Positions 12,624 to 22,483 of a stretch of 64,000 bases of DNA are shown here, one piece after another. The first letter of the stretch is position 1. Each line of letters opens with the position of its first letter. Source of the DNA: Rhodoferax sp. GTDB taxonomy: Bacteria; Pseudomonadota; Gammaproteobacteria; Burkholderiales; Burkholderiaceae_C. Made by a program: the position numbers and the translations under genes. The DNA lies in the NCBI GenBank assembly GCA_016790475.1, contig JAEUOX010000172.1:30557-94556 (forward strand), given 5' to 3'. The notes beneath the pieces are model-generated. The model did not search any database and was not told the DNA's origin. It saw only the letters and a program-made list of their open reading frames with translations.

Positions 12624-13706
12624 ATGAAAATCGCAATCCTTCCGGGTGACGGCATCGGCACCGAGATCGTCGCCGAGGCCGTCAAGGTCCTGCAGGTGCT
12701 GGACCTGAAGCTCGAGACCGAAACCGCACTCGTCGGTGGCGCCGCCTACGAAGCCCACGGACACCCGCTGCCGGACAGCACGCTGCAGCTGGCCCGCCAG
12801 GCGGATGCGATCCTGTTCGGCGCCGTCGGCGACTGGAAGTACGACAAGCTGGACCGGCCGCTGCGGCCGGAGCAGGCGATCCTCGGCCTGCGCAAGCACC
12901 TGGGCCTGTTCGCGAACTTCCGTCCGGCGATCTGCCATGAGCAGCTGGTCGATGCATCCAGCCTCAAGCCGGAGCTGATCGCGGGCCTGGACATCCTGAT
13001 CATCCGGGAACTGACCGGCGACATCTACTTTGGGCAGCCCCGGGGCCGCCGCACCGCGACGGACGGCCATTTCCCGGGCTCCGAAGAGGCCTTCGACACG
13101 ATGCGCTACAGCCGCCCGGAGGTGGAGCGCATCGCCCACGTGGCCTTCCAGGCCGCCCGCAAGCGCAACAAGCGGGTGACGAGCGTGGACAAGGCGAACG
13201 TGCTGGAGACCTTCCAGTTCTGGAAGGACGTCGTGACCGATGTCGCCCGGGAGTACCCCGACGTGGCACTGGACCACATGTACGTCGACAACGCTGCGAT
13301 GCAGCTGGTCCGCGCCCCCAAGAAGTTCGACGTGATCGTGACCGGCAACATGTTTGGCGACATCCTCAGCGATGAGGCCGCCATGCTGACCGGATCGATC
13401 GGCATGTTGCCTTCGGCCAGCCTGAATGCGCGCAACCAGGGCCTCTACGAGCCCAGCCACGGCAGCGCCCCCGACATTGCCGGCAAGGGCATCGCCAATC
13501 CGCTGGCGACGATCCTCAGCGCCGCCATGATGCTGCGGTTCAGCCTGAATCAGCCGGAGGCGGCCGACCACATCGAGACGGCGGTTCGCGCGGTGCTGGC
13601 GCAGGGACTGCGCACCGCCGATATTGCCGGCCCCGGGACGATCCCGGTCGGTACGGTGGCGATGGGCGACGCCGTGGCTGCCGCGCTGCGCCAGGCACTC
13701 CACTAG
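12624..13706 (+). CDS. leuB: 3-isopropylmalate dehydrogenase
   Basis: [50 protein letters not shown]. Confidence 0.98.
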
Positions 13707-13715
13707 AATCGGCCC

Positions 13716-15250: not shown

Positions 15251-17947
15251 TTGATTGCTAAGTCACATCGCTGGCGCAAGACCGCGGTCGCGTCCCTGGC
15301 CGCGGCGCTGGTCGGCTTGTCCGGGTCGTCCGCCCATGCGCTGGCTTTGGGCCGGATCACCGTCCAGTCGGCACTTGGCGAACCCCTCCGGGCAGAGATC
15401 GATATCCCGGACATCAACGCGGAGGAAGCCTCCAGTCTCAAGGCGGCAGTTGCGCAACCCGAGGCCTTCAAGGCCGCCGGGCTTGACTACAACGCGGCCC
15501 TCGCATCCGCGCAAATCTCGTTGCAGCGCCGTGCGGATGGGCGGGCCTATATCCGGATCACCAGTGACCGCATCGTCACGGAACCCTTCATCGACCTGAT
15601 CCTGGAGGCCAGTTGGTCTAGCGGGCGTGTGGTGCGTGACTACACGATGTTGCTGGATCCTCCCAGCCTGCGGCCCCAGGTCGCCGCCGCGCCCGTCCTG
15701 CCGCAGGTCGCTGCCGCACCGGTGGCTCCCGCCGCGCCAGCGGCCGCTCCCGCGGTCGTCACGCCCCGGCCGGCCGCACCGGCACCGGCACAGGCTGCTG
15801 CGCCCCGCAAGCCAGCGACAGCCGCAGCGGCCCCGGCCAAGGCCCGCAGCGAGGGCGAGAACCGGGTGGTCGTGAAACCCGGCGACACCGCGAGCCGCAT
15901 TGCGGCGGCCAACAAGCCAGCCCAGATCTCGCTGGACCAGATGCTGGTGGCCCTGCTGCGCAATAACGAGGATGCGTTTGTCGGCGGCAATCTGAACCGG
16001 CTCAAGGCCGGCTCCGTGCTGACGATCCCCACCGAGGAGCAGGCCCGTGCGATGGCCCCGGCCGAGGCGTCCCAGACCGTGATCGCCCAGAGCCGGGACT
16101 TCAACGATTTCCGGGGCAAGCTGGCGACCAGTGCACCGACCGTGCCGGTGGCCTCCGCCGACCGCAAGGCCAGCGGGACCCTGCAGGCCCAGGTGGACGA
16201 CAAGAAATCGACCGCCCCGGCCGCGGACAAGCTGCAGTTGTCCAAGGGCGGTCTGGAAGTCGCGAAGGCCACCGAGGCCAAGGTCGCGCAAGACAAGATG
16301 GCCCAGGACGCCGCGAAGCGTGCGGCCGAGCTGGCCAAGAACATCAAGGACCTCAACAACATTGCCGCCGGATCGGTGGCGGCCTCCGCGCCTGCGGCAG
16401 CCACCGCTCCCGTGGCGGTCACGGCACCGGCTCCTGCACCGGCCCCGGTCGCTTCGGCCGCGCCTCCCCCGCCCGTGGCAGTTTCCGCACCGGCGCCAGC
16501 ACCGGCCCCCGTCGCCAGCGCCGCGCCTGCACCGCGGCCCGTGGCCAAGGCGCCAGCCGCGCCACCGCCGCCGCCCGAGGAGCCCGGCTTCCTCGACAGC
16601 CTGCTGGAGAATCCGCTGATTGCCGCAGCGGCTGGCGGGTTGATCGCGCTGATGGCAGGCCTGGGCATCTACCGGGCACGGCAGCGCAAGAAGACGGCCG
16701 AAGTCGACAGCGCCTTCCTGGAGAGTCGCCTGCAGCCCGATTCTTTCTTCGGTTCGAGCGGCGGACAGCGGGTCGACACGAACGATGGTGCTCCCACCGG
16801 CTCGTCGATGGTCTACTCGCCCAGCCAGCTGGATGCGGCCGACGACGTCGACCCGGTGGCCGAGGCCGATGTCTACCTGGCCTACGGTCGCGATCTGCAG
16901 GCCGAAGAGATCCTCAAGGAGGCCTTGCGAACCCACGCCGGCCGTATCGCGATCCACCAGAAGCTGCTGGACATCTACGCAAAGCGGCGCGACGTCGCAG
17001 CCTTCGAGAACATGGCCAACGAGGCCTACAAGGTGGTCGGTGGCCAGAGTCCCGAATGGGCCAAGATCTGCGAACAGGGCCAGTCGATCGATCCCAACAA
17101 TCCGCTGTACCAGCCCGGCGGCCAGCCCTCGCCGCAGAACCTGGTTCCCACCGCGGTGCCGCGCGACTTCCCGAGCCTCGCGTCGGCTGCCGCAGCCACG
17201 CAGAAGATCTCGGTGCCCGCCGCCGCGGCACTGGCGCCGGCCACCGTGGATCTGGATCTCGACCTGGACTTTTCGCTCGATGAGCCGGCACCCAGCGCGA
17301 TCGTGGAAGCCCAGCCGACCCGCAGCGAACCCTCGACGGTGGCGCTGCAGGCCGTGCCCTCCGGCCCCGCGCCGCTGGACATGGACTTCGGCATCAGCAC
17401 CGAGGCCCTGCCGGCCCGCACCGGCGCCGACGCGGCCCCGCTGCCGGTGGAGGTCGACCTGCCGGACGCCCCGGGCGCCAACGATACCGTGGCCCTGTCC
17501 GCCAGCGAGAGCGAGGAATTCCGCCAGCAGGCGGAAGTCAGCTTCGGCTCCACGAGCCCGGTGCCGCTGCAGGCCCAGACGACCGCGATGGCACCGTTCG
17601 CGTCGGTCGATGCCCCCCTGCCCGATCTGAACTTCGGCGCCACGACGCCGGACACGCTGACAGCCACCCAGGCGCCCCTGAACCAGAAGGATGCGCCGGA
17701 CTCCGGCATGCTGGAGTTCGACCTGGGAACCCTGTCGCTCGAACTGGAACCGGCAGCGCCTGCTGCCGCACCAGAAGCCGCGGCAGCCGAGCCGGAAGAC
17801 CCGCTGGCAACCAAGCTGGCCCTGGCGGAGGAGTTCGTATCGATCGGCGACGACGATGGTGCCCGCGCACTGATCGAGGAAGTCATTGCCGAGGCCACCG
17901 GCGACCTCAAGGCCAAGGCGCAGCGTGCGCTGAGCAGCCTGGGCTGA
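15251..17947 (+). CDS. fimV: FimV/HubP-family polar landmark protein (LysM, TM, acidic cytoplasmic region, C-terminal FimV domain)
   Basis: LGRITVQSALGEPL, RDYTMLLDP, LysM-like VKPGDT...NLNRLKAG, DPVAEADVYLAYGR, TKLALAEEFVSIGDDDGARALIEEV; TTG start with GGAGG RBS; asd-fimV-truA synteny. Confidence 0.93.
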   Translation: MIAKSHRWRKTAVASLAAALVGLSGSSAHALALGRITVQSALGEPLRAEIDIPDINAEEASSLKAAVAQPEAFKAAGLDYNAALASAQISLQRRADGRAYIRITSDRIVTEPFIDLILEASWSSGRVVRDYTMLLDPPSLRPQVAAAPVLPQVAAAPVAPAAPAAAPAVVTPRPAAPAPAQAAAPRKPATAAAAPAKARSEGENRVVVKPGDTASRIAAANKPAQISLDQMLVALLRNNEDAFVGGNLNRLKAGSVLTIPTEEQARAMAPAEASQTVIAQSRDFNDFRGKLATSAPTVPVASADRKASGTLQAQVDDKKSTAPAADKLQLSKGGLEVAKATEAKVAQDKMAQDAAKRAAELAKNIKDLNNIAAGSVAASAPAAATAPVAVTAPAPAPAPVASAAPPPPVAVSAPAPAPAPVASAAPAPRPVAKAPAAPPPPPEEPGFLDSLLENPLIAAAAGGLIALMAGLGIYRARQRKKTAEVDSAFLESRLQPDSFFGSSGGQRVDTNDGAPTGSSMVYSPSQLDAADDVDPVAEADVYLAYGRDLQAEEILKEALRTHAGRIAIHQKLLDIYAKRRDVAAFENMANEAYKVVGGQSPEWAKICEQGQSIDPNNPLYQPGGQPSPQNLVPTAVPRDFPSLASAAAATQKISVPAAAALAPATVDLDLDLDFSLDEPAPSAIVEAQPTRSEPSTVALQAVPSGPAPLDMDFGISTEALPARTGADAAPLPVEVDLPDAPGANDTVALSASESEEFRQQAEVSFGSTSPVPLQAQTTAMAPFASVDAPLPDLNFGATTPDTLTATQAPLNQKDAPDSGMLEFDLGTLSLELEPAAPAAAPEAAAAEPEDPLATKLALAEEFVSIGDDDGARALIEEVIAEATGDLKAKAQRALSSLG

Positions 17948-17981
17948 CAAGCAACCTGAGGCCTTGGGCAGCGGGCGGCTC

Positions 17982-18764
17982 GTGAGGCTTGCGCTGGGCG
18001 TCAGCTACCATGGCGCCGCCTACCAGGGTTGGCAGAGCCAACCCTCCGGCCAGACCGTCCAGGACCAGCTGGAGCTTGCACTGAGCCGGCTGGCGGACGC
18101 CCCCATCGGAACCCTCTGCGCAGGCCGCACCGATGCCGGTGTGCACGCGCTGATGCAGGTGGTCCATTTCGACACCAACGCCGTCCGCCGCCCGTTCTCC
18201 TGGGTGCGGGGTACCAATGCCCTGCTGCCGCGCGACATCGCCGTCCAATGGGCGCAGGTCGTGCCGCCGGAGTTCCATTGCCGGGCCGCGGCACAGTCGC
18301 GCCGCTACGCCTACATCCTGCTGGAGTCCGCGGTCCGGCCCTCGATCGACCACGGGCGCGTCGGCTGGGTCCTGCCGGGTCTGGATGCGCAGGCGATGCA
18401 GCAGGCAGCCGCCCTCCTCCTCGGCGAGCATGATTTCACGTCGTTTCGTGCCTCGGCGTGCCAGGCGCTTTCACCGGTCAAGAACCTGATGCACATCGGC
18501 ATCACCCGCAGGGGAAGCTATTGGCGATTCGAGTTCGAGGCGAATGCCTTTCTGCACCATATGGTGCGCAATCTGATGGGTTGCCTGCTCGCCATCGGCC
18601 AGGGCCGCCAGCCGTCGGATTGGGCCGCTCAGGTGCTGCAGGCGCGCTCGCGCGATGCGGCTGCGCCAACCTTCTCTCCGGAAGGCCTGTACTTCCTGGG
18701 CCCGCGCTACGCCTCCCATTGGGGACTGCCGGATCGCACCGACCCGTATGATGGACTGCCATGA
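17982..18764 (+). CDS. truA: tRNA pseudouridine(38-40) synthase
   Basis: YHGAAYQGWQSQ, CAGRTDAGVHA, GEHDFTSFR, ANAFLHHMVR. Confidence 0.97.
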   Translation: MRLALGVSYHGAAYQGWQSQPSGQTVQDQLELALSRLADAPIGTLCAGRTDAGVHALMQVVHFDTNAVRRPFSWVRGTNALLPRDIAVQWAQVVPPEFHCRAAAQSRRYAYILLESAVRPSIDHGRVGWVLPGLDAQAMQQAAALLLGEHDFTSFRASACQALSPVKNLMHIGITRRGSYWRFEFEANAFLHHMVRNLMGCLLAIGQGRQPSDWAAQVLQARSRDAAAPTFSPEGLYFLGPRYASHWGLPDRTDPYDGLP

Positions 18765-19460
18765 ACCTGCCCCTGTACCCGCCGCACCGCACGCGCATCA
18801 AGATCTGCGGCATGACCCGGGAGGCCGACGTGGACGCGAGCGTCGCGGCCGGGGCGGATGCGGTCGGCTTCGTGATGTACCGGCCCAGCCCGCGCCATGT
18901 CACGCCGGAGCGCGCGGCCGAGCTCGCACGCCGCCTGCCGCCCTTCGTGACACCGGTGCTGCTGTTCGTCAACGAAACTGCCTCGCACATCGCAGCCTGC
19001 TGTCGGCTGCTGCCGACTGCGCTGCTGCAATTCCATGGGGACGAAACACCGGAACAGTGCCAGGAAGCCACCGGCGGCGGTGCGCGCGCCTATCTGCGCG
19101 CCGCACGCATCCCGCTGGGCGATGCGGCACTGCAATTCGATCTCGTAGAATTCGCACAAACTTTCAGAGGCGCCCAAGCCCTGCTGCTCGACGCACATGT
19201 CGAGGGATACGGCGGAGGGGGCCGCAGCTTCAATTGGTCACTGCTTCCTCCAAGCGTCGATTGTCACCTCGTCTTAGGTGGTGGGCTCACGCCTGCAAAC
19301 GTGACCGATGGCATCTTGCAGGTGCGACCGCGTTGCAGATCGCTCGCGGTTGATGTCAGCAGCGGCGTCGAGATGTCCAAGGGCATCAAGGACGCCACCA
19401 AGATCCACCAATTTGTCGCGGCCGTGCGTGCCGCCGACGAACAGCTTGCGAGATTGCACC

Positions 19461-19483
<23 letters not shown>
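18761..19483 (+). CDS. trpF: Phosphoribosylanthranilate isomerase
   Basis: [19 protein letters not shown]...[32 protein letters not shown]. Confidence 0.96.
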
Positions 19484-20752
<1,269 letters not shown>

Positions 20753-20756
<4 letters not shown>

Positions 20757-21598
20757 GCCGCATCACCGCTACGCTGGCAGCGCTGAAGGCGCAGCGCCGA
20801 ACCGCACTGATCCCCTATGTCACGGCCGGCTTCCCGTACCCGGACATCACGCCCGCGCTGATGCACGGCATGGTCGCGGCCGGCGCGGACATCATCGAGC
20901 TGGGTGTCCCGTTCTCCGACCCGAGCGCCGACGGCGCCGTGATCCAGCGGGCCGGCGACAAGGCCCTGGCTGCCGGCATCGGCCTGGTGCAGGTGCTGGA
21001 GATGGTGCGGCAGTTCCGCCTGCGGGACACCACCACGCCGGTCGTGCTGATGGGCTACGCCAACCCGATCGAACGCTATGACCAGCGGCATGCAGCGAGC
21101 GGCCCGGGCAGCGCGTTCGTGCAGGCGGCGGCCCAGGTGGGCGTGGATGGCCTGCTGGTCGTGGACTACCCGCCGGAGGAATGCACCGCGCTGGCGGCCG
21201 ACCTGCGCCGCCATGGCCTGGACCTGATCTTTCTGCTGGCGCCAACCAGTACCGAGCGGCGCATGCAGCAGGTGGCGCAGGTGGCATCCGGTTATGTCTA
21301 CTACGTGTCGCTGAAGGGTGTCACCGGGGCCGGCACGCTGGACACCGCCGCCGTGGAGTCGATGCTGCCGCGCATCCGCCAGCATGTGCACATCCCGGTC
21401 GGCGTCGGGTTCGGCATCCGCGATGCTGCGTCCGCCTGCGCGATCGCGCGCGTGGCCGACGCGGTAGTCATCGGCAGCCGGATCATCCAGTTGATCGACG
21501 AACAGCCGGCGGACCGCGTTGTCGCGGTCGCGTCGGAGTTCCTTGCTGGCATCCGCGGCGCTTTGGACAGACAATCCGCTGCGTCCACCCCTTCCTGA
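20753..21598 (+). CDS. trpA: Tryptophan synthase alpha chain
   Basis: From MSRITATL (ATGA overlap with trpB); [36 protein letters not shown]. Confidence 0.97.
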
Positions 21599-21610: not shown

Positions 21611-22483
21611 ATGAGTTGGCTAGAGAAGCTGTTGCCCCCGAAGATCCAGCACACCGATCCAGCGGAACGCCGCACGGTGCCGGAAGGCCTGTGGATCAAA
21701 TGCCCCAGCTGTGAAACCGTCCTCTACAAGACCGACCTGGAGCAGAACCAGAATGTCTGCCCGAGCTGCAGCCACCACCACCGCATCAGCGCGCGCGCCC
21801 GGCTGAATGTTTTCCTGGACAACGAAGGCCGCTTCGAAGTCGCCCAGGAGGTCCTGCCGGTGGATGCGCTGAAGTTCAAGGACAGCCGCAAGTACCCCGA
21901 GCGCCTGAAGGAGGCGATGGACAACACCGGCGAGACCGATGCGCTGGTCGTCATGGGGGGTGCGATCCACAACATCAGCGTCGTCGTGGCCTGCTTTGAA
22001 TTCGACTTCATGGGCGGGAGCATGGGTTCGGTGGTGGGCGAGCGCTTCGTGCGCGGCGTCGAAACGGCGATCGAGCAGAAGGTGCCCTTCATCTGCTTCA
22101 CGGCCACCGGCGGCGCCCGGATGCAGGAAGGTCTGCTCAGCCTGATGCAGATGGCCAAGACCAATGCCGCGCTGACCCGGCTGGCCAAGAAGGGGCTGCC
22201 GTTCGTCAGCATCCTGACAGATCCGACCACCGGCGGTGTCAGCGCCAGCTTTGCGTTCATGGGCGACATCGTGATCGCCGAGCCGAAGGCGCTGATCTGC
22301 TTTGCCGGCCCGCGCGTGATCGAATCCACGCTGCGCGTGACGCTGCCGGCCGGCTTCCAGCGGGCCGAGTTCCTGCAGGAGAAGGGTGCTGTCGACTTCG
22401 TGTGTGACCGGCGCGAACTGCGCAAGGTCGTGGCCAATGCACTGGCCATGCTGCTGCGTCAGCCGGCCGACGCCGTGGTCTGA
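21611..22483 (+). CDS. accD: Acetyl-CoA carboxylase carboxyltransferase beta subunit
   Basis: Zinc finger WIKCPSC...[36 protein letters not shown]. Confidence 0.98.

Follow-up and report, generated by a model that had tools for sequence, protein, structure and literature searches.

A candidate tryptophan-sensing leader peptide nested out of frame in trpF behind an internal promoter for trpBA in betaproteobacteria

The 3' half of the trpF gene of Rhodoferax sp. and of many related betaproteobacteria contains a second, out-of-frame reading frame with tandem Trp codons, which follows an internal promoter for trpB and trpA and which, judged by the selection acting on it, is very likely a translated leader that senses tryptophan, whatever its output. 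That such a leader would act through translational attenuation of trpB is, on balance, more likely than not, given the predicted RNA pairing. We consider it probable that a complete attenuator (promoter, Shine-Dalgarno (SD) sequence, start, Trp-Trp sensor, stop and an arm for the trpB ribosome-binding site (RBS)) has been written into synonymous positions of trpF and kept across the Comamonadaceae, Sphaerotilaceae, Oxalobacteraceae and Burkholderiaceae, that it was overlaid on an older promoter, that its start, stop and arm were re-invented several times, and that it supplies the missing control of trpBA; as part of this reading, Ralstonia and its kin would have re-invented the leader start by adding a loop to the TrpF protein.

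The starting point was a single stretch of 64,000 nucleotides (the window), in which a preliminary description had read a Trp leader nested in trpF behind an internal trpBA promoter. The comparisons given below support that reading, and the observation on which it was based is confirmed and is not a product of chance.

Loci compared

The same-genus sample comprised 18 loci, the window included, and the same-family sample (f1) one genome per genus, for which 151 genomes matched and 120, spread over the score range, were fetched. Two further samples represented an Oxalobacteraceae type (f10; 30 of 31 genomes with a match, with leaders that match those of named Massilia, Duganella, Herbaspirillum and Undibacterium) and a Burkholderiaceae type (f36; 30 of 37 genomes with a match, grouping with named Burkholderia, Caballeronia and Ralstonia). 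The outgroup consisted of other families of the order, with 29 loci scored; the best 30 of 58 matches there were taken as loci, and L311 and L316 (motif absent) and L029 and L030 (split gene, distant paralogue) were excluded. A further 120 loci were obtained with a pattern that requires the element and were used for names and folding only, not for prevalence. Two loci, L061 (which has the Trp-Trp pair, WW) and L149 (with an inner ATG), are rightly scored in the prevalence counts and mis-scored in the codon-column, stop, anti-SD and C/G counts and in the tree. Two pattern matches (L197 and L203) were found in metagenome-assembled genomes labelled Singulisphaera and Sphingomonadaceae and are probably mis-binned betaproteobacterial contigs.

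A nested reading frame in the 3' half of trpF

The gene order in the window is truA-trpF-trpB-trpA-accD, with the trpB start inside the 3' end of trpF (Table 1). The closest named relatives of its TrpF among the pattern matches are mostly Comamonadaceae (71-78%). All positions given in the preliminary description, the 39-codon reading included, proved exact when the letters were rechecked, and its remark that the 3' half of trpF is rich in A/T-ending codons was borne out by the GC3 profile and by the codon columns of the family. The GC3 of trpF is 0.74 vs 0.82-0.91 in eight of the nine other nearby genes (nagZ has 0.72), and along the gene it runs at 0.9-1.0 over the first 70 codons and at 0.45-0.70 over 19091-19360. 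Among 121 family members, codon columns that are at least 60% A/T-ending number 12 of 31 in 19226-19353; the 5' half has 2 such columns among 80, and none of the 24 columns past the stop is of this kind.

Table 1. Features of the trpF-trpB region and the putative nested leader (positions in the window)
Feature	Position	Strand	Basis or remark
trpF, phosphoribosylanthranilate isomerase, host of the nested element	18761..19483	+	NCBIfam NF002299 over cut-off
-10 hexamer TAGAAT, internal promoter	19146..19151	+	TG-extended in many relatives, not in the window
Probable transcription start, trpB-trpA-accD mRNA	19158	+	transferred from B. cenocepacia J2315 dRNA-seq start site
GGAGG, distant Shine-Dalgarno-like site	19214..19218	+	15 nt from TTG
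Helix P1, 5' arm, covers leader start	19233..19241	+	predicted
Nested out-of-frame leader ORF, 39 codons, TTG to TGA	19234..19353	+	TGA at 19351-19353; sequence and conservation
Tandem Trp codons TGGTGG, leader codons 16-17, likely sensor	19279..19284	+	sequence and conservation
CCTGCAA, candidate anti-sequestering arm	19292..19298	+	pairs with TTGCAGG 19316-19322; partly conserved
Helix P1, 3' arm	19301..19309	+	predicted
Third Trp codon TGG, head of arm predicted to pair with trpB start	19309..19311	+	sequence
Sequestering arm	19311..19323	+	predicted pairing with 19445-19458
TTGCAG, alternative partner of CCTGCAA in the preliminary description	19333..19338	+	letters confirmed
trpB ribosome-binding region and ATG (19461)	19445..19463	+	predicted target of sequestration
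trpB, tryptophan synthase beta	19461..20756	+	TIGR00263
trpA, tryptophan synthase alpha	20753..21598	+	TIGR00262
accD, likely same transcript as trpBA	21611..22483	+	TIGR00515; 12-nt gap to trpA

The leader is 24 codons long in the Oxalobacteraceae (f10) and Burkholderia types (f36), and the third Trp codon is present in 152 of 197 f1 leaders, 5 of 50 in f10 and 5 of 28 in f36. The leader peptide had no match in NCBIfam. The caveat raised at the outset, that the GGAGG lies about 15 nt from the TTG, still stands; in many relatives AAGG or GGAAAGG precedes the start by 6-7 nt, with AAGG at the place of 19223-19226 in most of them, and the window genome is without that AAGG and has no well-spaced SD for the TTG. 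An anti-SD energy of -3.5 or better was found for 82-97% of the holders of the leader vs 50% of the outgroups, a modest separation.

Two other short frames were seen nearby. In the window, the leader TGA overlaps an ATG (19353) in the trpB frame, which could give a 36-residue N-terminal extension and which is not conserved. A third-frame ATG ORF of 26 codons (19197-19277) is made by the trpF codons CAT GTC; CAT makes up 71% of that column, yet the His column at 19034 also has 62% CAT.

Conservation of and selection on the leader

The start, the open frame and the WW occur jointly in 18 of 18 loci of the genus, 114 of 120 in f1, 29 of 30 in f10 and 24 of 30 in f36, and in 1 of 29 loci of other families; the -10 hexamer (19146) and a nearby stop are kept along with them. 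A pattern search of 3 of the 64 parts of the GTDB collection leads to an estimate of about 3,300 matching stretches. The element, first described from one genome, is thus present there but is not confined to it, since it extends over at least three families.

A codon alignment of trpF orthologues, which had been proposed as a check, showed that TGGTGG, the start and the open alternative frame are conserved in the holder families. Free use of GGC GGC, or stops ahead of the WW, had been named as observations that would speak against a leader. The second Trp of the leader depends on a Gly codon of TrpF, and this codon is GGT in 97% of 121 genomes, whereas GGT accounts for 136 of 840 Gly codons (16%) in the 5' half of the gene. 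The orthologues have no stop on the way from the start to the WW, with the exception of two small low-GC genomes (L330 and L353; 1.2 Mb), in which the leader is broken. Where a T at the third codon position would introduce a stop ahead of the WW, it was used in 0 of 185 cases, vs 474 of 1442 where it is harmless. The Ser codon before the WW is TCT or AGT, which belong to two codon families and both end in T. At the stop site, GTT is used in 79% of cases, vs 2-20% A/T-ending codons at those other Val columns that lie neither in the -10 nor in the leader.

These figures already contradict one alternative, namely that the internal promoter alone is real and that the ORF is a by-product of the FxW and LSGG motifs of TrpF and of a relaxed codon bias. 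The GG of each TGG is indeed fixed by TrpF, the -10 is kept in most leaderless families (see below) and one AT-rich genome of another family (L023) has TGGTGG by chance. However, a by-product would not account for the preference for GGT and for GTT at just these columns, and 28 of the 29 other-family genomes have the same TrpF motifs without a leader, so that we regard this alternative as very improbable.

The TTG start is replaced in several lineages. It was swapped on separate branches for GTG (L044 and L101) and for ATG (L053 and L059), and in Ralstonia and seven more f36 genomes a new ATG is provided by an inserted xxA TGG located 12-25 codons before the WW, in which the codon ahead of the inserted TGG is of four kinds (CAA, GCA, CCA and ACA); the old start site has been lost (GAC TGG) in six of these eight genomes. 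At L302, L329, L331, L332, L341, L345, L351 and L355 the inserted TrpF loop is variable, and its Trp codon follows an A-ending codon, which makes the leader ATG. The loop may be there for the overlapping frame.

A similar replacement was seen at the stop. In the 113 family members that were scored, the late GTT-GA stop alone was seen in 91, an early stop alone in 17, both in 2 and neither in 3, so that 17 of the 20 members without the late stop carry an early one; kin are not independent in these counts, but the early stops are scattered on the tree. A third stop site, 9 codons after the WW, is used by f10 and Burkholderia. The leader is lost or broken in L330, L353, L290, L346, L349, L354, L356, L097, L109, L127, L137, L139 and L147; several of these genomes are small and of low GC, and they form natural controls for loss or replacement of trpBA control.

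The start swaps, the compensation at the stop, the avoidance of stops and the decay in low-GC genomes argue together for a leader that is translated rather than for an RNA motif, and translation of the nested ORF is therefore likely. What the translated product would sense is a separate matter. A nascent chain that arrests the ribosome in the manner of TnaC, with basic residues and an R-[FL]-x-W-W motif sensing free Trp, indole-glycerol phosphate or another tunnel ligand instead of charged tRNA, or a peptide or RNA acting in trans, appears rather improbable to us. The codons CGT (Arg) and TTT/CTT (Phe/Leu) before the WW are nearly invariant in 142 leaders even though TrpF permits other letters, and the 24 codons of the f10 and f36 leaders equal the 24 residues of TnaC. 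On the other hand, the distance from start to WW ranges from 12 to 26 codons (usually 15), tail lengths vary between about 8 and 42 codons, the identity of the peptide is largely forced by the TrpF frame, and an RNA arm could account for the letters UCGUUUU. For action in trans there is a precedent in Sinorhizobium, where the available text of one report (10.1101/606483) describes a trpL peptide that acts in trans.

A probable internal promoter for trpBA

The assignment of TAGAAT at 19146-19151 as a -10 hexamer was strengthened by comparison: a hexamer of the type TA[ACG]A[AC]T is present 120-175 nt before the Trp site in 18 of 18 loci of the genus, 117 of 120 in f1, 29 of 30 in f10, 22 of 30 in f36 and 25 of 29 in the outgroup, whereas control windows contain 0-2. 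It is formed by a rare GTA or CTA codon of trpF, often with an extended TG. A plain sigma-70 scan returned 0 sites at the element, for want of a good -35. The window contains 6 copies of TAGAAT; those at 13704-13709, 10476 and 5224 are likely promoters as well, and one of them overlaps the leuB stop upstream of asd.

A transcription start site (TSS) within trpF had been set as a test, and one is found at the homologous place in B. cenocepacia J2315, following the homologous -10. The supplementary files 6 and 8 of the dRNA-seq study of this strain (PMC4603805) list an internal sense TSS at position 419 of trpF, directly after TTGGTAGAAT, with 661 read starts in the untreated library and 1494 after TEX treatment, and these files list no TSS for trpB itself. 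A search of the main text of that paper for 'trp', 'leader peptide' and 'attenuat' gave no occurrence. Similarly, the rows covered of the TSS supplement for Cupriavidus metallidurans (PMC7563307) include no primary TSS for trpB. Counted from the first base of the -10, the TSS of B. cenocepacia follows at 12 nt, and the spacing between the -10 and the TTG is 88 nt both there and in the window, which places the start in the window at about 19158.

In the leaderless families a -10 within trpF, often TG-extended, lies about 91 nt before the homologous position (L020-L028 and L306-L327; 25 of 29). The internal trpBA promoter thus looks order-wide, and since leaderless families have kept the -10, it appears to be older than the leader.

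RNA structure and the trpB ribosome-binding site

The caveat that no intrinsic terminator follows the leader holds: 0 terminator-like sites were found in 17000-21000, and the gaps between the leader stop and trpB consist of coding trpF sequence. The trpL attenuator is represented in Rfam by RF00513; a scan of 18900-19700 against Rfam gave four chance matches (E 2.6-9.8), none of them on the element, and the folding z-score of 19225-19345 was -0.69. Translational coupling between the leader stop and trpB was rejected since 96-292 nt separate the stop from trpB in each of the 104 family members scored. The TGA/ATG overlap was likewise rejected as a general means of coupling because 61 of 114 relatives read GTT GAC at the stop position and the frame relative to trpB varies.

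The preliminary description had noted that CCTGCAA, just after the WW, can pair with downstream letters. The predicted helix is strong in the window (-13.0 kcal/mol), but it is only partly conserved: at -6 kcal/mol or better it was found in 12 of 18 loci of the genus and in 44 of 113 of the family. It could be the missing switch in the window. Pairing between the leader RNA and the trpB RBS is the better-supported prediction, since the RBS is predicted to pair with leader regions that a ribosome would cover in 184 of 257 holders vs 3 of 23 outgroups. By group, the counts were 100 of 147 for f1 leaders with the third Trp, 33 of 43 for f1 leaders without it, 35 of 48 for f10 and 16 of 19 for f36 (a pairing of at least 3 nt was required; loci with a distance from start to WW other than 15 codons, a gap of more than 300 nt or an N were excluded). 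A pyrimidine-rich leader tends to pair with any purine-rich SD.

The region used for this pairing seems to differ between groups. Helix P1, which contains the TTG, was predicted at -6 kcal/mol or better in 18 of 18 loci of the genus and 94 of 113 of f1, and in 0 of 30 of f10 and 0 of 26 of f36; the Burkholderia types are instead predicted to use the region of its 5' arm for pairing with the trpB SD. Use of the downstream arm is associated with leaders that have the third Trp (p 0.03), and use of the 5' arm with leaders that lack it (p 0.002), kin not being independent in either comparison. Between B. cenocepacia and B. multivorans a two-sided change preserves the pair formed by the start arm and the SD, and other f36 members have clade-specific complements between the start-region arm and the SD. 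In a test in which segments were swapped between nearest relatives, the predicted arms came first in f1 (p 0.01) and in f36 (8 of 9, p 0.01), significance that is lost on correcting for 29 offsets, and there was no signal at the predicted arm in f10. A scan of cognate versus swapped pairs within the leader gave no clear helix; its t values, down to -4.5 among 231 pairs, indicate the noise level of swap scoring. A search for a strong helix shared by every holder returned nothing but weak, G-U-rich candidates; a UCGUY:GGUGG helix of 5 pairs, itself weak, could form in each of the 142 holders.

With respect to these structures, the conserved block might be untranslated and serve, within the 5' UTR of the internal transcript, as an RNA element or as a site for protein binding, with the TTG and the TGG codons as by-products. 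The near-total nucleotide conservation over some 90 nt within the genus, the tolerance of P1 for a G-U change on the + strand and the weak helix shared by all holders would fit such an element. Its probability is nevertheless low in our view: the start swaps, the inserted ATGs, the compensation between stops at three sites and the avoidance of stops would all go unexplained, P1 is absent from f10 and f36, and neither the folding z-score nor Rfam points to a structured RNA.

In simulated folds, removal of the 5' part of the leader opened the trpB RBS in 19 of 27 f10 loci (2 closed) and in 20 of 26 f36 loci (1 closed), vs 6 up and 9 down among the outgroups (n=25). The RBS in the f10 and f36 folds opens if a queued ribosome covers the start region. 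In f1 the RBS opens only if the removal passes the third Trp (60 up, 15 down, n=101), and equilibrium folds with a ribosome stalled at the WW alone show no net opening (32 up, 30 down, n=101). For the window itself, only a ribosome at the stop opens the RBS (0.40 to 0.60), the positions at the WW and the third Trp giving values of 0.23-0.36.

The behavior of the f1 folds is relevant to a second possible output of a translated Trp sensor, in which with plentiful Trp the ribosome would leave at the stop and Rho would terminate transcription before trpB, whereas stalled or queued ribosomes would block the loading of Rho on the C-rich 5' leader. In line with this, there is no intrinsic terminator, the distance between the leader stop and trpB leaves an untranslated gap without coupling, a stall at the WW alone does not open the RBS in the f1 folds, and the stretch between start and WW has a C/G ratio of 1.7 in f1 vs 0.85-1.07 elsewhere. 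That ratio is only 1.1 in f10, however, like that of the outgroups (1.07), and the gap past the leader stop is predicted to be highly structured. In addition, the mean sense values in the B. cenocepacia data (PMC4603805; the column is read as a normalised mean) are 48 for truA, 111 for trpF and 163 for trpB, which suggests a loss of at most about 25% between leader and trpB in the one condition covered. A Rho-dependent output is the chief alternative, which we consider unlikely as the main mode; since Rho is present in the window genome and the stretch before the WW is C-rich in f1 (not in f10), Rho-dependent control is possible and may add polarity to a translational block.

Proposed mechanism

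Translational attenuation of trpB would proceed as follows. Transcription would start at about 19158, as it does at the homologous place in B. cenocepacia. Initiation at the TTG would, as the selection on start, frame and stop suggests, be followed by translation of 39 codons up to the TGA, which lies about 107 nt ahead of trpB. When Trp is plentiful, the leader would be cleared quickly and the leader RNA is predicted to pair with the SD and AUG of trpB. The sequestering arm would be mainly the leader's own start region in the Burkholderia and Oxalobacteraceae types; in the window and many Comamonadaceae the start region would be held in P1, with 19311-19323 serving as the arm. When Trp is scarce and charged tRNA-Trp is low, a ribosome would stall at the WW, and the usual distance of 15 codons between start and WW would allow a second ribosome to queue on the start region; in the Comamonadaceae a stall at the third Trp would cover the downstream arm. 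The trpB start would then be freed, trpB translated and trpA translated by coupling.

Tryptophan control elsewhere in the genome

We found no TrpR in the window genome, which is 89.8% complete. In this genome (L357, on the minus strand of G000:C363), some 256 nt upstream of trpE, a TACACT -10 lies about 7 nt ahead of a 33-codon ORF that begins with ATG and whose codons 17-19 read Trp-Pro-Trp. A Trp-Pro-Trp ORF before trpE is conserved in 10 of 11 same-genus loci (L367-L376 among them) and is a candidate for a leaderless Trp leader of trpE. Some other families (L360, L362 and L364) likewise have short ORFs rich in Trp ahead of trpE. The lack of a detectable TrpR and the conserved Trp-Pro-Trp leader of trpE suggest that ribosome-based Trp sensing is this lineage's way of controlling the pathway.

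Comparison with known systems

Tandem Trp codons are the sensor of trpL attenuators. Among the features of a classical trpL, the trpF element has a tandem-Trp ORF upstream of trp genes on the same transcript (the TSS being placed by homology), and it lacks a terminator with a U-tract and conserved terminator/antiterminator helices; among the features of a Rho-type leader, the presence of Rho, the lack of an intrinsic terminator and an untranslated gap past the stop were found. The position of the internal promoter resembles that of E. coli trp-p2, a weak, constitutive promoter within trpD that drives the distal trp genes without a leader ORF; unlike trp-p2, the trpF promoter is strong in B. 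cenocepacia and is followed by an ORF with Trp codons. In the rtpLP leader of B. subtilis, which is free-standing, the position of the ribosome decides on pairing of the SD.

According to the accessible text of the respective reports, the trpL leaders of enterobacteria and alphaproteobacteria (10.1101/606483) share with the trpF leader a short tandem-Trp ORF before trp genes and a promoter of their own; the trpF element differs in having no terminator hairpin with U-tract and no Rfam match, in being nested in a coding gene and in preceding trpBA rather than trpE. In the mycobacterial polycysteine sORF attenuators (Ms5788A, Canestrari et al., 10.1101/834739), stalled ribosomes block a structure that sequesters the RBS. 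As is proposed for the trpF leader, a short ORF with tandem codons for the amino acid of the pathway there controls a downstream RBS through a ribosome stall, without an intrinsic terminator. The Ms5788A type is leaderless, senses Cys and is located in a 5' leader, whereas the trpF element is leadered, senses Trp in the proposed reading, and lies out of frame in an upstream enzyme gene, 96-292 nt from the target start. The same report describes the translational attenuators of ermC and cat, in which the position of the ribosome on the leader ORF decides on SD pairing in the way proposed here; these respond to antibiotics and are free-standing, whereas the trpF leader is dual-coding with an enzyme.

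Trp codons that lie in a larger coding region and gauge Trp for trpBA, together with an alternative promoter, are also found in the WWW motif of Chlamydia trachomatis YtgR, as the accessible part of PMC7755916 describes it. That motif is in frame in a repressor gene and works in trans via the level of the protein, while the Trp codons in trpF are out of frame and would act in cis. For E. coli, alternative-frame ORFs inside genes and leader-type small ORFs are known, and the text available of 10.1101/511675 contains no nested amino-acid sensor; terminator-less leaders have been proposed in the Actinobacteria in the part of PMC1262725 that we could consult. In the openly accessible literature that was searched, we found no description of a Trp leader nested in trpF.

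The trpF leader thus seems most like the Ms5788A and ermC/cat types in its working, with a sensor like that of trpL. Its nested out-of-frame architecture in a conserved enzyme gene is unusual, and an attenuator embedded in this way would be missed by annotation and by screens of 5' leaders and intergenic regions, where attenuators have been looked for. If true, it would be a type case for attenuators that are invisible to intergenic screens. It would also be a natural case of dual coding that shapes the sequence of an enzyme, and it suggests that other split operons be scanned for nested leaders. If it works as we infer, the element would explain how trpBA is tuned to Trp in many soil, water, plant-associated and biotechnological betaproteobacteria, which have split trp genes and, in the window genome, no TrpR that we could find.
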